From Candidatus Altarchaeum sp. (GTDB taxonomy: Archaea; Altiarchaeota; Altiarchaeia; Altiarchaeales; Altiarchaeaceae), in NCBI GenBank assembly GCA_018260615.1, contig JAGWDQ010000081.1:1-49302 (forward strand): a DNA stretch of 49,302 bases, written 5' to 3'. Positions 4,367-49,302 of this stretch are shown in pieces. The position numbers and the translations under genes were made by a program. The stretch's first letter is position 1. The number at the start of each line of letters is the position of its first letter. The notes under the pieces were generated by a model, which saw only the letters and a list, made by a program, of their open reading frames with translations, did not search any database and was not told the DNA's origin.

Positions 4367-4516
4367 TCATATATTTTTATACACCCACACCACAAAAACA
4401 ACAATACCCATAACGCATAAAATCAGTCCAAGTAGAGAAGCAATTACATTATATACAAACATAACCGCCCCAATCATTATAAGTGCGACTGCGATCCCTA
4501 TAAGATATTCCTTCAT
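4367..4516 (-). CDS. Small 49-aa hydrophobic two-TM protein (not in ORF track)
   Basis: Manual translation MKEYLIGIAVALIMIGAVMFVYNVIASLLGLILCVMGIVVFVVWVYKNI; co-oriented with neighbours. Confidence 0.55.
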   Translation of the reverse strand: MKEYLIGIAVALIMIGAVMFVYNVIASLLGLILCVMGIVVFVVWVYKNI

Positions 4517-4608
4517 TTTGTTTAATATGAATTATTATGTTTATGAATTTAAATTTAAAAAATTTGATAAAATTTTATGGGGGTAATAAAATTTTTATGT
4601 TGGACAAG

Positions 4609-4854
4609 TTAAATTCCTACTAAAAATGTAGGTATTATCTTAAATATTGCATTTGCAATTACAGATCCTAATCCCTCTGCAAGTCCTCCTCTAAATTTTC
4701 TAATAAGTTCTTCTTTTAGAGATTCTTTCTTTTTAAGACATTCAAAACTTATCTTGACATGCTTTTTTGTTCCTTTTATATTTATACCTATATGTCTATC
4801 ATATATTAATATTGTTCCCCAAGGATATACTATCCTTTGTTTTGCTCTTGCCAT
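4609..4854 (-). CDS. Hypothetical protein with hydrophobic C-terminus
   Basis: 81-aa ORF, co-oriented with flanking genes; no family recognised. Confidence 0.5.
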   Translation of the reverse strand: MARAKQRIVYPWGTILIYDRHIGINIKGTKKHVKISFECLKKKESLKEELIRKFRGGLAEGLGSVIANAIFKIIPTFLVGI

Positions 4855-6336: not shown

Positions 6337-7359
6337 TTATTTTTCTCTTTTCCTGTAAGCAAGCGGATTTTTAAATTTTTCCTCATCCTCGCTGAACCAT
6401 ATCCCCAAACTCTTCATTGTGGAGTAAGACGGACAGGTGTATTTTCTCTTTGCCAGATAATCTAAATAATAAGATGTTTTCTTCTCATCGTAATTTGACG
6501 AATGAGCGAAAATTTTTTTTATTTCTTCAACAGGTGTTTCTTTGTTAACCAAAAATGATGCAAGCACAAATCTCTCATTATGATTGACTTTTTCTTTGTT
6601 TTCGATTTTTTGAACAATACGTGCAATGCTCGGAGGCATTTCAGGGTTTGCCTTTGATTTCATAAAAATTTTGGGAAAAATTTCCATTTCTATTTTTTTG
6701 AACTCACTCTTCAATAACTTTGCCTTTTCAGCAATTACATCCGGTAAATTTATGTTGCTTAAATTTAATATCTCCGCATATCTTTTCTCTACAAGAGCTC
6801 TCGCCATAATTATTAATTCGTCTTCATCCACCTCAACAAAGCCATTATCAATCCTTCTGTTAATCAGGCGGAATTTCTCACGGAATTTCTCATCAAAATT
6901 TTTTGTATAAGATAAGTAATCAACAAAGTAAATCTCATTGGCGTTGTTCAATTTTTTTTCCAAATTTTTTTTTCTGGAAAATTTTAAAATTTCCATCAAA
7001 ATTTCATTCCTTACATCCTCACCCTCTTTTCTTATAAATTCTTCAAATAGTGCGCCTTCACTTTTTGCATACTTTTGTCTTAAATTTTCACTAACCTCCG
7101 CTAAATTTAAAAAAATTTTTGCCAAAGGAAATGAAATCAGATAAATTTCGTAGCCGGCATCACCGAGATTTGACCTCGGAGAATACTCTGTTTTTCCTCT
7201 GATTATTCCGTTCAGGATTCTTTCTGCCGCTATTTTAATTGCACTTCCGTAAACAGGACTTTCTGCAATTGCTTCTAAATTTAAATTTTTTCTTTCAATA
7301 TATTCCTTGCCTTCCTTCAAAAACGGATATTTGCTTAAAAACCGGATATCTTTTTGCAT
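6337..7359 (-). CDS. priL: DNA primase large subunit PriL (atypical, Cys-poor C-terminal domain)
   Basis: N-terminal LSKYPFLKEGKEYI; RLINRRIDNGFV; C-terminal domain MPPSI...HNERFVLASFL...YTCPSYSTMKSLG...KNPLAY. Confidence 0.82.
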   Translation of the reverse strand: MQKDIRFLSKYPFLKEGKEYIERKNLNLEAIAESPVYGSAIKIAAERILNGIIRGKTEYSPRSNLGDAGYEIYLISFPLAKIFLNLAEVSENLRQKYAKSEGALFEEFIRKEGEDVRNEILMEILKFSRKKNLEKKLNNANEIYFVDYLSYTKNFDEKFREKFRLINRRIDNGFVEVDEDELIIMARALVEKRYAEILNLSNINLPDVIAEKAKLLKSEFKKIEMEIFPKIFMKSKANPEMPPSIARIVQKIENKEKVNHNERFVLASFLVNKETPVEEIKKIFAHSSNYDEKKTSYYLDYLAKRKYTCPSYSTMKSLGIWFSEDEEKFKNPLAYRKREK

Positions 7360-44405: not shown

Positions 44406-44980
44406 AAAGTCATAAAATTTCCGGTGATTATGACGGAAGCCAGATAAAACCATTTTGGGCAAGGGAAAAATTTGGTGTTTCCGAGGACAATATTGTTGTA
44501 ATGGTTGGAAGTATGGATGTGAAGTTTGAAAATATGGTTGATATGGATGATTTGAGAGACCAAAAAGCAATCAGAACTGATAAAGCAATTCATTTCTTAA
44601 TTGAACATTATGACGGCAAAGATATACGACTGGCGTATTACAGGCAGAGGATTTTCTGTATCGTTGTTGAAGAAATTTTAAGAAAATACAACATAAATGC
44701 AGAAAGGAAGGGAAGTGATCTGTATGTTGAAGGAAAGAAGTTGAGCGTAAGCATAGCAACAACAGGCAAAACACAAAAGATTCATTTCGGAATAAATTTA
44801 ACTACAAAGGGAACGCCAAGTGATGTGAAAACAATTGCACTTGAAAATTTTGAATGTTTCAAAGATGATAAAAATATTAATAATGTAAACATCAATAAAT
44901 TTATTGATGATGTTTTAAATCGCTATATTTTTGATGTTGAAAAGATTGAAAAGGATATAATGAAGACAAAAATTTTTTAA
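44402..44980 (+). CDS. DUF366 family protein (biotin/lipoate ligase-like fold)
   Basis: YDGSQI...W, MVDMDD, HFLIEH, GSDLY..GKKLSVSIAT, HFGIN. Confidence 0.85.
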   Translation: MKSHKISGDYDGSQIKPFWAREKFGVSEDNIVVMVGSMDVKFENMVDMDDLRDQKAIRTDKAIHFLIEHYDGKDIRLAYYRQRIFCIVVEEILRKYNINAERKGSDLYVEGKKLSVSIATTGKTQKIHFGINLTTKGTPSDVKTIALENFECFKDDKNINNVNINKFIDDVLNRYIFDVEKIEKDIMKTKIF

Positions 44981-45244
44981 TAATCCGAAGTTTTCCGCCA
45001 ATATAAAAGTTCGGTCGTGGTTTTATAGTTAACGCTTTCTAAATTTAAATATATTTATTAACAAATCATAATTATTAACAAAAATAACAGAAATAAAATT
45101 TCATTCAAAGGTTAGATATACTAATCCGCAAGTAAAATTTGGAAATTTTCTGTTAGAATGTTTTTAAACTCATCGTAATATTTGTCTAAATTATCTAAAA
45201 AGTTACAAAAAACAGATGTGGGTTAGTATATACGAATATTGCAA

Positions 45245-45335
45245 ATATAACTCCATATCGGGATGATATGCACAATGCGGATATATCTTCAGATTGGAGG
45301 GATATACGCAGTACTGCGTATATAACGAGTTATAT
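45245..45335 (+). repeat. attC-like palindromic site 1
   Basis: atataactc...gagttatat 9-bp outer IR (AAC/GTT core), inner catatc/gatatg, and a 22-bp perfect palindrome atatacgcagtactgcgtatat at 45302-45323. Confidence 0.5.
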
Positions 45336-45412
45336 GAAATTGCCCACATTTCAAGAGAAAAATAACATACAGCTGGGCGTCTTAATCAAAAGTAAAAACA
45401 GAAGGTGATAAA

Positions 45413-46405
45413 ATGGGAATATTTGATAAGTTGTTTGGAAAGAAGAAAACAGAGAAAGTAGAATCAGAGACACGACCAGAAGTAAAACAAGTTAATGAGC
45501 GCGGAACAGATCACGATGAGGCAAGAAAACAATTCCTGCAAGATGCAAAGTCACGTGATTTAAGAGCATTTCGCGTTTGGGGTCCTGACCAAAAAATTGA
45601 AATCTCTGGTGATTGGATGACACTGTTTTGGAGTCAGCGTCCTATAGAAGTATATGCACACCCTGATAGGGTAATTGCATTTCTTAACCAAAATATGCTT
45701 CCATATCTTTGGCCAGATGATATGAAGTATAAAGATTCTGTGAACTCAGAGGAAAAACCACAAAATTGTCTTCGCCTTCAATGGATAGTATCCTATTTAC
45801 ATCATCCAGATTCGGAAGTAATCATTAAAACGCTCCAGACCAAAATACCCACTGATATTTTGGAAACTGTTGGTATGACAGATGCACTTGGCGATTTACT
45901 TATACACTCAGATACGAAAGTGCGTAATGAAGCAGCAAAAGTTGCTTGGAGATGTAGTGATGCGTTATTTGAGGGTTTATTCAAGATATTAAGTTCGCAG
46001 GGAATGATGCCATCAGGAATCAGTCCGAGGGAAGGAAAACAAGCTGTTGAAATACTAGGAAATCATTGTCCACCCGAACGAAGACAACTTTTTCAGAAGT
46101 TAGTTCTTGATGCTTTTGGGCCAACTGTTGCGAAAACGAAACAGAAATTGACATCGGAATCAATTAAGGATATCCGAAAAGTATGCGGAAAATGCGGGAT
46201 AACCATGGAAGAGCGTATTCGATGGTGGCATGCACCAAAACCTCAAGGAGTTGTAAGAATTGGTTGTGATGATCGTGAACTGTTTCTTTATTGCAATCAT
46301 TGCCAGAAAAGGATTTGCGGAGGGTGCTCAATTGATCTTGGCATGACCGCAGGGTGCCCATTTTGCATGAAAGAGCTTGTATATATGGATGGAACAAGTC
46401 AGTAG
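45413..46405 (+). CDS. Hypothetical protein: helical (HEAT-like) region plus Cys-rich C-terminal zinc finger(s)
   Basis: gaaggtga RBS; HSDTKVRNEAAKVAW HEAT-like motif; CGKC, C, CNHC..ICGGC, CPFC. Confidence 0.75.
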   Translation: MGIFDKLFGKKKTEKVESETRPEVKQVNERGTDHDEARKQFLQDAKSRDLRAFRVWGPDQKIEISGDWMTLFWSQRPIEVYAHPDRVIAFLNQNMLPYLWPDDMKYKDSVNSEEKPQNCLRLQWIVSYLHHPDSEVIIKTLQTKIPTDILETVGMTDALGDLLIHSDTKVRNEAAKVAWRCSDALFEGLFKILSSQGMMPSGISPREGKQAVEILGNHCPPERRQLFQKLVLDAFGPTVAKTKQKLTSESIKDIRKVCGKCGITMEERIRWWHAPKPQGVVRIGCDDRELFLYCNHCQKRICGGCSIDLGMTAGCPFCMKELVYMDGTSQ

Positions 46406-46539
46406 CAAGGATAAGTTTACAATACAAACTTAACTGATTATCTACTCAAATGGGTTCACTCTATGGGGAACACAGCGATTAAATGCGGGCAACTCTGCGG
46501 AAGCCTTCGGGGCTTCCTTGCATCGCCTTCGGCTTGGTC

Positions 46540-46624
46540 ATATAACAAAGGATTTGCGATTCGCTATCGCTCATCCAAATTGCTCCTTATGGTTGCAACT
46601 TCGCAAATCCTCGTTCCGTTAAAC
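46540..46624 (+). repeat. attC-like site 2
   Basis: ATATAAC-aa-aggatttgcga ... tcgcaaatcct-cgttcc-GTTAAAC; 11-bp perfect inner arms; GTTRRRY end. Confidence 0.55.
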
Positions 46625-46687
46625 TCAATCGTGGGCTTCGGGGCTTAACGAAAGTTTATTAAACTTCAATATATCAATAATTAAATT

Positions 46688-47188
46688 ATGGATGATTTTA
46701 ATATCTGGGGAACACCGAGCAAAAAGAAAAAACAAGATAATATTTTCGGCGGCTATCTTGATTTAGGTTTAGGTCCAAAAAGAGGAAGAACTAAAAATCC
46801 TATAGATATAGGAATTGGTTTTGGTTCAGCAAAAGAAAAACCAGAATATGAAAGAGTTCCTGTAACCGCTGAACAGAAGAAAGCTGTATTATTCAGACAA
46901 AAAGATAAATGTGCATGGCCAAATTGTAGAGTCCATTTTCATAGAGACGGCGTTCCACCACATTTTGATCATATAAAGAGAGTTGATAAAGGTGGAATAA
47001 GTTCTATTAGTAATATTCAAGCATTGTGTCCAAACCACCATCAATTAAAAACCCATAAAGAAAATTTGAAAGAAGTTGAAAAAACAAGAAAGAAAGCAAA
47101 GAAAAAAGATAATGGTGGTTTGTTTGGTGGTGGAACACTTTTTGGACCGCCGCCGAAACGTTCTAAAAATAATTCATTTGGTTTATAA
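46688..47188 (+). CDS. HNH endonuclease with Gly/Phe-rich flanks
   Basis: CAWPNC...FDHIKRVDKGG....NIQALCPNHHQLKT. Confidence 0.88.
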   Translation: MDDFNIWGTPSKKKKQDNIFGGYLDLGLGPKRGRTKNPIDIGIGFGSAKEKPEYERVPVTAEQKKAVLFRQKDKCAWPNCRVHFHRDGVPPHFDHIKRVDKGGISSISNIQALCPNHHQLKTHKENLKEVEKTRKKAKKKDNGGLFGGGTLFGPPPKRSKNNSFGL

Positions 47189-47261
47189 TAAAGCCCACTC
47201 ACCCATGACTTCTTCGTCGCTTCGCTCCTTGACCACATTGCATTCTCACTTCGTTCGGGGC

Positions 47262-47347
47262 GTTGAACAGGCTTTTACGGTTCGGTTCTTGCAGAACCTC
47301 ACCCAAATTTCCCTTCGAGAAACTTCGTAAAATGCCATACGTTAGGC
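47262..47347 (+). repeat. attC-like site 3
   Basis: GTTGAAC-ag-gcttttacg ... cgtaaaatgc-catac-GTTAGGC; canonical GTTRRRY end; one unpaired base in the stem. Confidence 0.55.
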
Positions 47348-47477
47348 GACATATTTTCAAGTCTCTTTTTGAAATAAGGAACGAGTGAAAAATTTTTCAA
47401 ATTTAAATGAGGTGAAATAAGGAGTTTTCTACACTCTGCTACGAAAGCGATTTATTTATAAAAACATTTCAAATAGC

Positions 47478-49302
47478 ATGAATAAGATGAGAACTACTAA
47501 ACAAGTGATAAAGGATATAAAAGAACTGATAAATACAAAAGGCTATATTTATGCTCTTTGTATGATTCTTTTTGAGGACTTTCATATTATTCCTGAAAAG
47601 ATACAGGAGATGGACCATAGATCACGTTTGAGTACAAAAGAAGCCTCTTTATTACTTGGTTTTCTTGTACAAAACAAAATTGATTTTTCTACACCAGATA
47701 CACCACAAGATTTGATTAAACTAAAACAAAAAACTTATGAATTAATGGACGAACTACACAATTCTTTTATGATCTCATTTTTTGAAAAATTATATGAAAG
47801 CATAAAAAAAGAACATAAAATTGAGGACTATAGAAAAGAGCAAAAAGAGTTTTTTGGTAAAGGTGATATGCTAACAGAACCAATTTTTTACTCTGGGACA
47901 GGTGTATATGATTTTCAATATTTGGATTTTCTAGAAAGAAAATATAAGTATGACAAAAAATGGCTATTCAAAAACAAAGGCTTTGATATCGAAAAATCAA
48001 AAAATATTGTTATTCAAATTAAAAACATTCTTCAAAAAAAATCACAAAAGATTCATTTATGTGGATTGAAAGAAAAAATACCCCAAATGATTGAGGACAT
48101 GAAAAAGAAAAATCCAGATGAAAATTGGAAAAAACATGCAAAAGAAATGATTCCAATGATGGATCTTCATCAATATGTTGAGTTATTTTTTGACACTCAA
48201 ACTGATGAGAAAGCATTAAGTATGGACGAAATTAGAGAAGAGGGCTGGAAATCATTTTACAATGGATTGATTGAATTATTTGTCATTAGAAAATCTGATT
48301 TTAATAGAGATTCTGGTATTGATTCGTTTCTTAAAAACTTCTCTCTTTTCCCTAAAAAAGACATAAATTATCAGTTTCAAAAAATTGGAAATTTTAATTG
48401 GTTTAATGCAAAACCGATTATTCAACTAGATGAAGAAAGATATTTTATCCCTATTAGTTTTTCAGTATTTGAAGCAATTTACGAAAGTCCTTTTTATTGG
48501 ATGTGGATAGAAGATAAATCTTACAGAGATCAACTTGGTGAAAATAGAGGAAAAACAGGAGAAGAAATTTCTTATGAATTTTTATCACAAGTATTCGGCA
48601 AAAGCAGAACCTTTCAGTCTGTAAAGATTACGACAAAAAAAGGAAATAATGATACAGATATTGATATTCTTTGTATCCTTGGTAGTAAGGCATTGTGTGT
48701 TCAAGTGAAATCAAAGAAACTAACTGAACTTTCAAGAACTGGTGACGATGAGCAACTACAAATAGATTTTCAAGGTGCTGTGCAAGATGCTTATAAACAA
48801 GGGCTCATATCTCGTCAAAAAATACTTGATAGAAAGGCGAAATTTTTTGATAAGAGCGGAAACGAAATATACCTTTCCAAAGAAATAGACGAAGTATATA
48901 TTATGGGAATAACAACAGAAAATTATCCATCTCTTACTCATCAATCACATGTAATGCTTGATAAAAAAGATAATGAGCCATTTCCAATATTTTCGACAAT
49001 ATTTGATTTAGAGTTGATGGTACATTATCTAAATGATCCTTATGATTTTTTGTATTACCTTAAACAAAGAACTTCTTTGATGGATTATTTTAAAGCTGAT
49101 GGGGAGATGGTGTTTCTTGGTTATCACCTAGATCAAAAACTTCGGAAAATTCCAAAAAGTGATAGAGTTGCAATTGATACAGATTTTGGACAACTAATTG
49201 ATAGAAATTACTACTCACTAAAAGCAGGACTGGAAGTTTCAGATATGTCTGTGGCGGGCATATTACGGGAAAGTGACAAAATTCACAATCACTTTGCTAC
49301 AA
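47478..49302 (+). CDS. Large NERD/PD-(D/E)xK nuclease-domain protein, runs off the window end (not in ORF track)
   Basis: Frame from ATG 47478 read at its start, near 48660 and at the window end without a stop; motifs EPIFY, YESPFYW, NRGK.GE, TDIDIL...VQVKSKKLT, AVQDAY.Q. Confidence 0.75.
   Translation, partial: MNKMRTTKQVIKDIKELINTKGYIYALCMILFEDFHIIPEKIQEMDHRSRLSTKEASLLLGFLVQNKIDFSTPDTPQDLIKLKQKTYELMDELHNSFMISFFEKLYESIKKEHKIEDYRKEQKEFFGKGDMLTEPIFYSGTGVYDFQYLDFLERKYKYDKKWLFKNKGFDIEKSKNIVIQIKNILQKKSQKIHLCGLKEKIPQMIEDMKKKNPDENWKKHAKEMIPMMDLHQYVELFFDTQTDEKALSMDEIREEGWKSFYNGLIELFVIRKSDFNRDSGIDSFLKNFSLFPKKDINYQFQKIGNFNWFNAKPIIQLDEERYFIPISFSVFEAIYESPFYWMWIEDKSYRDQLGENRGKTGEEISYEFLSQVFGKSRTFQSVKITTKKGNNDTDIDILCILGSKALCVQVKSKKLTELSRTGDDEQLQIDFQGAVQDAYKQGLISRQKILDRKAKFFDKSGNEIYLSKEIDEVYIMGITTENYPSLTHQSHVMLDKKDNEPFPIFSTIFDLELMVHYLNDPYDFLYYLKQRTSLMDYFKADGEMVFLGYHLDQKLRKIPKSDRVAIDTDFGQLIDRNYYSLKAGLEVSDMSVAGILRESDKIHNHFAT

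Follow-up and report, generated by a model that had tools for sequence, protein, structure and literature searches.

Does a row of single genes separated by imperfect palindromes at the end of an archaeal contig represent an integron, the remains of one, or a system of another kind? The contig concerned, JAGWDQ010000081.1 (C81) of assembly GCA_018260615.1 from Candidatus Altarchaeum sp., was analysed in full, and its whole length of 49 kb (49,302 nucleotides) is called the window below. An original prediction, made from the letters of the sequence alone, had described an integron-like cassette array at its right end. The array itself, with its co-oriented single genes and attC-like sites, was recovered, but its assignment to the known type of archaeal integrons was not, because the recombinase linked to it lacks the extra domain of IntI; for the same reason the system is not simply a cluster of attC sites lacking an integron integrase (CALIN; Cury 2016, as used in PMC9668308). 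In our judgement the locus is, with good probability, a three-cassette, sedentary and integrase-less array of an integron-like system which is served by a Xer-type, non-IntI recombinase.

Site family, cassette boundaries and leader

The host assembly comprises 2.23 Mb in 148 contigs, with a GC content of 33% and a completeness of 87%. As predicted, three imperfect palindromes ending in GTTATAT (45329-45335), GTTAAAC (46618-46624) and GTTAGGC (47341-47347) alternate with three plus-strand open reading frames (ORFs), located at 45413-46405, at 46688-47188 and from 47478 to the contig end. The predicted enrichment of the intergenic DNA in GC was also confirmed (0.41-0.45, against 0.21-0.34 in the surroundings and 0.33 genome-wide), and the distances of 70-135 nt announced between stop codons and sites were measured as 135 nt for the second palindrome (site 2) and 73 nt for the third (site 3). 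These two are the cassette sites of the window and lie 721 bp apart (<4 kb).

The site of cassette 1 (site 2, 46540-46624, plus strand) reads, in order, ATATAAC, AAA, GGATTTGCGA as one half of the L stem, a variable hairpin, the conserved inner hairpin AAATTGC..GCAACTT, TCGCAAATCC as the second half of the L stem, TCGTTCC and GTTAAAC, and that of cassette 2 (site 3, 47261-47347, plus strand) reads GTTGAAC, AG, GCTTTTACG, an inner part, CGTAAAATGC, CATAC and GTTAGGC. The common plan of the family begins with (A/T)ATAAC, 3 nt and a stem half of 9-10 nt; a variable hairpin and then a conserved one come next, and after them the second half of the stem, 7 nt (in most cases with TTCC at their end) and GTTA. 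The outer cores AAC and GTTA are invariant or almost so, and the positions beyond AAC/GTT fit RYYYAAC/GTTRRRY partly. The spacers between R and L, which had been described as non-canonical, indeed count 3 nt at the 5' flank and 7 nt at the 3' flank, or 2 and 5 nt in the case of site 3. No base is bulged in the L stem of 9-10 bp, and the sole fixed irregularity of the family is an A.C mismatch carried by the conserved inner hairpin.

Searching the genome by BLAST with the spacers returned similar sequences on contigs C142 and C38. A scan for the bare AAC-stem-GTT pattern was dropped, as it gave 535 matches in this AT-rich genome; a motif regular expression and then covariance models were used instead. 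Model R1 was built from ten family sites, and model R2 from sites on other contigs together with one archaeal and one bacterial locus of other phyla, the window being excluded. R1 scores 77.8 bits on site 2 and 50.8 bits on site 3, finds about 23 sites in the genome on at least 12 contigs, and detects sites in 33 of the 61 genomes of the phylum, with a maximum of 45 per genome and more than 150 further copies across the phylum. With R2, site 2 obtains 62.1 bits (E 1e-13), site 3 obtains 36.6 bits (E 6e-7) and the third site of the array, on contig C101, obtains 28.6 bits, the next best place in the window reaching 17 bits. The covariance-model check suggested along with the prediction therefore places sites 2 and 3 far above background.

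The pairing of these sites is under evident constraint. The L stem is paired in 97-98% of cases, with 6 or 7 of its 9 pairs altered on both sides; over all stems, 90-91.5% of the cells are paired, 9-11 pairs carry two-sided changes and none of 500 shuffles reaches the observed covariation, while slid controls of the alignment pair at just 24-45%. The copies vary in sequence yet retain pairing, they are always intergenic and in a single orientation, and site 2 folds better than its shuffles on either strand (z = -3.2). Because the stems are kept by compensatory changes and not by sequence, the cassette site probably works as a folded single strand, a form in which it would take part in recombination. 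Between the two options left by the original prediction, a divergent class or decay, the first was retained: the window sites belong to a large, conserved and covarying class with its own geometry and are not decaying canonical attCs. Decay is limited to site 3, whose L stem has lost 1 nt relative to the copy on L040, a contig of another metagenome, in which the stem is intact over 11 bp; the window copy of cassette 2 thus appears slightly decayed.

Site 3 is preceded by a GC-rich 5' extension (47200-47260), which is conserved in sequence with the sites around an HNH homologue on the unrelated Logan contig L027 and does not fold alone (z +1.5). GC-rich stretches of about 60-70 nt upstream of the inner core were observed at 46470-46539 of the window, besides 47200-47260, and at L027:3843-3950, 4508-4610 and 6680-6780. 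The intergenic DNA also holds CTTCGG hairpins, which in kind are typical of RNA.

The boundaries of the cassettes provide a second line of evidence. If a cassette circularizes through a crossover in GTT, the bases that follow GTT at its start should complement the inner core of its own end site. Over 18 consecutive cognate pairs, which include all three window cassettes (one of them across the contig gap), 4.44 of 6 variable positions match, against 2.78 of 6 in non-cognate pairs, and none of 20,000 permutations gave a value as high (p about 5e-5). Cassette boundaries thus fall at G|TT, and they define, with the site family, what is shown for this array; we infer the exact cleavage point and the reacting strand.

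Cassette 1 (45330-46618, 1,289 bp, plus strand) has a GC content of 0.37-0.43 against 0.33 for the genome and carries the ORF 45413-46405, which codes for 330 amino acids with a Cys-rich C-terminus. The cassette begins with GTTATATGA, and its own site contains the reverse complement of this sequence, TCATATAAC. Relatives of this cassette are few and partial, and searches of Pfam and PADLOC gave no family for its protein. Cassette 2 (46619-47341, 723 bp, plus strand) carries the ORF 46688-47188, coding for an HNH endonuclease of 166 amino acids (PF01844) that weakly resembles type IV methyl-directed restriction enzymes (PADLOC mREase_IV), and its start matches the core of its own site at 6 of 7 positions. 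The whole cassette with its site recurs at about 95% identity on L040, where the identity runs from the left GTT core to GTTAG at the right and the outside is occupied by a different site remnant and a glycosyltransferase gene. The first bases of the L040 copy, GTTCAACGC, complement the inner core of its own site perfectly. Comparison of the two copies shows that cassette 2 is a discrete modular unit, and it answers the proposed check on cargo homologues, since the HNH cassette recurs with the same site in another array.

The first part of cassette 3 (47342-49251, plus strand) contains an ORF starting at 47478 with a weak match to the nuclease-related domain NERD, and the cassette continues at C101:48-898. 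Its own site lies at C101:788-906 and contains TCGCCTAAC, the reverse complement of the cassette start GTTAGGCGA. The weak NERD match is the only one obtained: the C-terminal part belongs to no Pfam or PADLOC family, and the other 60 genomes of the phylum contain no homologue of the gene. Right after the stop of this gene, at C101:560-620 (locus L032), another frame reads a SEC-C-like CxC..KYKKCC; the sequence suggests a frameshift near the end of the gene.

The first palindrome is of a different nature. An attI-like leader (45215-45335, plus strand) carries, three times over, a unit of about 37 nt in the form of an imperfect palindrome GATATACGCA..TGCGGATAT; its final unit is the perfect 11+11 palindrome at 45302-45323, followed by ATATAAC (45320-45326), GA and GTTATAT (45329-45335). 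Palindrome 1 (45245-45335) is the end of this leader and scores at background with R2 (12 bits, E 1.7). Of the three attC-like sites announced, sites 2 and 3 were thus retained, and palindrome 1 was reassigned as the crossover end of the attI-like leader, where crossover would occur at G|TT, between 45329 and 45330. The window leader is a diverged copy of a sequence present about ten times in the genome, the others being found on C38, C142 (two), C5, C120, C68, C90, C70 and C53. When aligned, the copies are conserved as far as GTTAT and divergent beyond, and the sequences that follow them (TTATATGA.., TTATCGGA.., TTATACGC.., TTAGGCG..) are the same set as those found after cassette sites. The leader reads as an attI because its right side corresponds to whichever cassette came last. 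Most of the leader copies have no adjacent integrase; that of the window lies after a DUF366 gene. At C142:2880-4215, two leaders stand 1.2 kb apart with a cassette site between them, and the junction of the first leader fits the core of that site poorly (4 of 6 positions).

A Xer-like recombinase and its linkage to leaders

That the window holds no integrase, as predicted, was confirmed, and the only tyrosine recombinase (PF00589) of the genome is a protein of 342 amino acids encoded on another contig (C79:92-1120, locus L001). In the catalytic and core-binding domains, its closest matches are XerA and IntI4 (E 1e-38 each). It obtains 237.9 bits with the NCBIfam archaeal XerA model NF040815, above the cut-off of 220, and fails the integron-integrase models (TIGR02249: 207, cut-off 265). 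Its alignment with VchIntIA (2a3v) falls into two pieces, in which residues 232-269 of the query face residues 170-249 of IntI4, so that about 40 residues are missing at the IntI-specific segment. Judged by these alignments, the recombinase is Xer-like and without the IntI insert. A search for IntI in the host genome, which is 87% complete, found none.

The recombinase has in addition an N-terminal domain (residues 1-70) conserved in its family with the pattern FPYNP..KIKTI.GYRWHP.EKYWSFP. As the full-length model was poor (predicted local distance difference test, pLDDT, of 61.6), the model of this domain alone was used (pLDDT 89.8). The nearest folds are the N-domain of T4 UvsW, the damage-recognition domain of XPB and HARP (Z 7.6-6.3), a resemblance which is suggestive only: Foldseek gives a probability of 0.99 at E 0.014 and nothing at E <= 0.001, and the VIA match at Z 7.6 lies in the range commonly seen. 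The N-domain of UvsW and the damage-recognition domain of XPB, like HARP domains, bind branched or distorted DNA. Going by the modelled fold, the domain of the recombinase may serve in reading the folded sites or the repeats of the leader.

The linkage of recombinase, leader and sites was established in relatives. The order integrase, leader, GTTA, cassette occurs in all five relatives in which it could be read (G001, G002, G013, G019 and G052), where the leader lies within 60-200 nt after the orthologous gene and in the same orientation, has covarying palindromic units and ends in ..ATAA-N2-3-GTTA. The same order and orientation were found in one archaeon of the Thermoplasmatota and in one WOR-3 bacterium, with a leader junction that complements the cassette site for 9 nt. 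At the level of gene order, these loci show that recombinase, leader and sites go together. In the host, contig C38, which carries a leader and an array, opens with 55 nt that match exactly the recombinase gene's 3' end and flank; this suggests the same layout.

R1 gives 65, 44 and 41 bits on the Thermoplasmatota and WOR-3 sites, and the Thermoplasmatota site at L035:9478-9560 is 87% identical (73/84) to a site of the host at C56:7291-7374; this similarity suggests that cassettes or sites have been exchanged between phyla. The recombinase family counts at least 7,967 proteins at E <= 1e-20, the best 120 being 51-82% identical to the host protein, and the members whose source is named are archaeal as well as bacterial.

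Other arrangements were also observed. In two other genomes of the phylum (G006:C1:1254835-1255987 and G019:C12:4275-6785), shorter Xer-like genes without the N-terminal domain lie divergent to R1-type sites at a distance of a few hundred nt, so that co-oriented and divergent layouts both exist. On L027 (917-8507, Logan SRR32844787), a Xer-like gene coding for 279 amino acids is divergent to a row of plus-strand genes: two of unknown function, an HNH gene 74% identical to that of cassette 2, a restriction-modification pair of the MjaI type and HsdM, the layout being that of a classical integron whose cargo is defensive. No convincing site was returned by R1 or R2 on L027, L030 or L031; by eye and by alignment, the spacers of L027 have the 5' extension and an AAC-AGG box in common with site 3, and their 3' halves look rearranged.

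Locus, proposed mechanism and rival explanations

The window array lies among archaeal housekeeping genes, with those for ribosomal protein L44e, diphthamide synthase and DUF366 upstream. Between the DUF366 gene and the leader is an AT-rich stretch (44981-45214, plus strand), possibly containing the promoter of the array, in which 45081-45109 resembles the sequence before other leader copies (29 nt, 97% identical to C38:143-171). No family of Rfam, which contains none for attC, reached the gathering threshold anywhere in the window, a search of 44900-47600 at E up to 10 gave chance-level matches only, and no tRNA was found in the window. On the other side, the gene of cassette 3 is cut because the window is the entire contig, and at 49252 that gene is interrupted by the insertion of a repeated element with 31-nt inverted ends, which causes the contig break. 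The end of this element occupies 49252-49302 (plus strand), and its 31-nt extremity recurs at C1:15254-15284, C105:20-50 and, inverted, C101:17-47; the ORFs of the inserted repeat on C1 have no Pfam match. The same array is present, with a break at this very place, in four further assemblies. If C81 and C101 are joined at the ends of the repeat, a frame of 762 codons stays open, an argument that is weak alone, as one offset in three would be in frame.

On C101, the third site is followed 185 nt further on by argG. In the sister species G003, argG lies about 440 nt downstream of DUF366, and the spacer between them contains one short ORF on the opposite strand, with no leader and no cassettes; a leader is also absent from the 373 nt that follow DUF366 in G001. 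The leader and its three cassettes are therefore a lineage-specific insertion, and by this comparison of gene neighbourhoods the array is shown to have been inserted between two core genes.

The array starts with the orphan leader, and each of its cassettes is a single plus-strand gene with a structured site of about 85 nt behind it. In the mechanism that we propose, two successive sites would recombine within their conserved GTTA and release a cassette as a circle, and the excised cassette would be inserted at the GTTA of the leader. The cassette site would react as a folded single strand, and the recombinase would have to act in trans from contig C79, where a branch of the assembly graph places a leader and an array behind its gene. 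Recombination on a single strand, the part played by the N-terminal domain and the activity of the enzyme in this strain are presumptive in this scheme, and the array copy of the window is orphan and probably static.

Several observations weigh against this interpretation. Neither a circle nor, within one population, an empty site was seen in the assemblies as a product of recombination. Certain cognate pairs match at just 3 of 6 positions. The fold check proposed with the prediction is borne out by site 2 and not by site 3 (z -0.0 and -0.9), and the C101 site likewise does no better than shuffles. The window itself has no integrase, and the interpretation does not account for the arrival of an orphan leader at this locus. 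C79 and C38 are linked by an overlap of 55 nt, and the other branch is taken by C79 itself and by a contig of 95 kb that is nearly identical to it. Having passed the XerA model, the protein could be a housekeeping dimer resolvase. Lastly, its residue 197 is a Gly in place of the first catalytic Arg, which is present in 29 of 29 aligned relatives and in three variants that are 95-99% identical and come from other assemblies; because of this replacement the recombinase of this strain may be inactive, unless Gly197 is an assembly error.

How far do other explanations account for the same data? The array could be a canonical archaeal CALIN served by a true IntI that either escaped assembly in this genome or belongs to a different organism, with the Xer-like gene found beside leaders elsewhere as a bystander. 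The AAC...GTT cores, the co-oriented single-gene cassettes and the GTT crossover all fit integrons, the incompleteness of the genome leaves room for a missed gene, and a survey of archaea counted 539 attCs against 6 IntIs (PMC9668308). We nevertheless regard this as improbable: besides the failure to find IntI in the host, the Xer-like gene stands directly before the leader in the five readable relatives and in two other phyla, the spacing of 3 versus 7 nt is peculiar to these sites, their inner hairpin is conserved where canonical sites vary, and the supplementary lists of the same survey (PMC9668308) that were searched include no Altiarchaeota. The palindromes could alternatively be repeated elements, similar to miniature transposable elements with inverted repeats (MITEs) or repetitive extragenic palindromes, or RNA elements at the 3' ends of genes such as terminators and stabilisers, with no site-specific recombination at all. 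The density of MITEs reported for Altiarchaeum is the highest among archaea (PMC11602168), the CTTCGG hairpins resemble those of RNA and the sites do lie 3' of genes. Such elements would not be expected, however, to obey the rule on cassette starts, to produce the leader junctions or to give exact boundaries to cassette 2; no terminal inverted repeats with target duplications were seen, the copies differ and still keep their pairing, and no Rfam family matches. Of the alternatives this one seems to us the most remote, and a role as RNA besides recombination is possible.

The Xer character of the enzyme raises another alternative, an exchange of modules on duplex DNA resembling that of pdif or of elements exploiting Xer, in which the XerA of the chromosome would recombine short dif-like cores and the long palindromes would be accessory. 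The leader core ATATAAC-NN-GTTATAT is a short inverted repeat, and the arms of dif also carry ATAA/TTAT beside the spacer; the enzyme that passes the XerA model is, moreover, the sole candidate of the genome. Against this stand the number of targets (about ten leaders and over 20 sites in place of a single dif), the identical direction of all sites of one array, a selection on pairing that spans 60-80 nt, and an extra N-terminal domain absent from solved XerA structures, all of which make this alternative very unlikely. An integron-like system with a Xer-type recombinase, by comparison, is the reading that we retain.

Significance and comparison with known systems

Integron recombination is held to depend on the domain specific to IntI. 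The present data raise the wider proposition of a second lineage of gene capture of the integron type, widespread in Archaea and Bacteria, in which a Xer-like enzyme that lacks the IntI insert and has an N-domain similar to structure-specific DNA binders (UvsW, XPB, HARP) recombines folded cassette sites with a geometry of their own, and one enzyme serves many scattered orphan leaders; we consider the chances of this proposition to be about even. If it is true, the integron strategy arose or diversified more than once, and the system makes it possible to test directly what the recombination of folded DNA requires. It could account for many archaeal CALINs without IntI, for which surveys list hundreds of sites and nearly no integrases. 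Genes may also move in this way across phyla and domains, because the recombinase family is very large, its members of named source belong to both domains, and one site is 87% identical between Altiarchaeota and Thermoplasmatota. To this picture the window adds a fully delimited array with an orphan leader between core genes, a modular cassette and a strain whose enzyme is possibly dead. The literature searched contained no account of such a system and none of integrons in Altiarchaeota.

Among known systems, MITEs are the most easily set apart, as their hallmarks (inverted repeats, target duplications and near-identical dispersed copies) are absent here. Archaeal XerA/dif, a system of chromosome dimer resolution in which a Xer-type recombinase acts on one 28-bp duplex dif site near the terminus (PMC2958812; PDB 4a8e, 5hxy), provides the closest catalytic and core-binding domains and the model that the recombinase passes. 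The present system differs from it in its many long structured sites, in having the recombinase gene beside its site and in the extra N-terminal domain. The array resembles a CALIN in having at least two sites less than 4 kb apart, no integrase nearby and cassettes presumably mobilised in trans; unlike a CALIN, it keeps an attI-like head, its partner enzyme is not IntI and its sites are defined by models of their own (R1 and R2).

The closest known systems are integrons (IntI/attI/attC), of the sedentary chromosomal type and of the inverted Treponema/Spirochaete type, in which intI is co-oriented with the cassettes. Integrons are established in archaea, where they are defined by an IntI with its extra domain (Ghaly 2022, PMC9668308). 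The recombinase described here differs from IntI by the absence of the segment of about 40 residues and by the presence of the 70-residue N-terminal domain. The sites of this family do not display the geometry of integron attC, with its unpaired spacer of about 5 nt on each side and its extrahelical bases; they have an R-to-L spacing of 3 versus 7 nt, a conserved AAATTGC..GCAACTT hairpin with a fixed A.C and no variable loop, and a GC-rich 5' extension. Leaders number about ten per genome and most of them are integrase-less; in the window, too, the attI-like sequence has no integrase beside it. With integrons, on the other hand, the system shares co-oriented and mostly single genes, each with an imperfect palindrome, AAC...GTT outer cores and a structure conserved over sequence, together with a crossover at GTT, a cassette start that complements its own inner core, and a repeat-bearing insertion site next to the recombinase gene.

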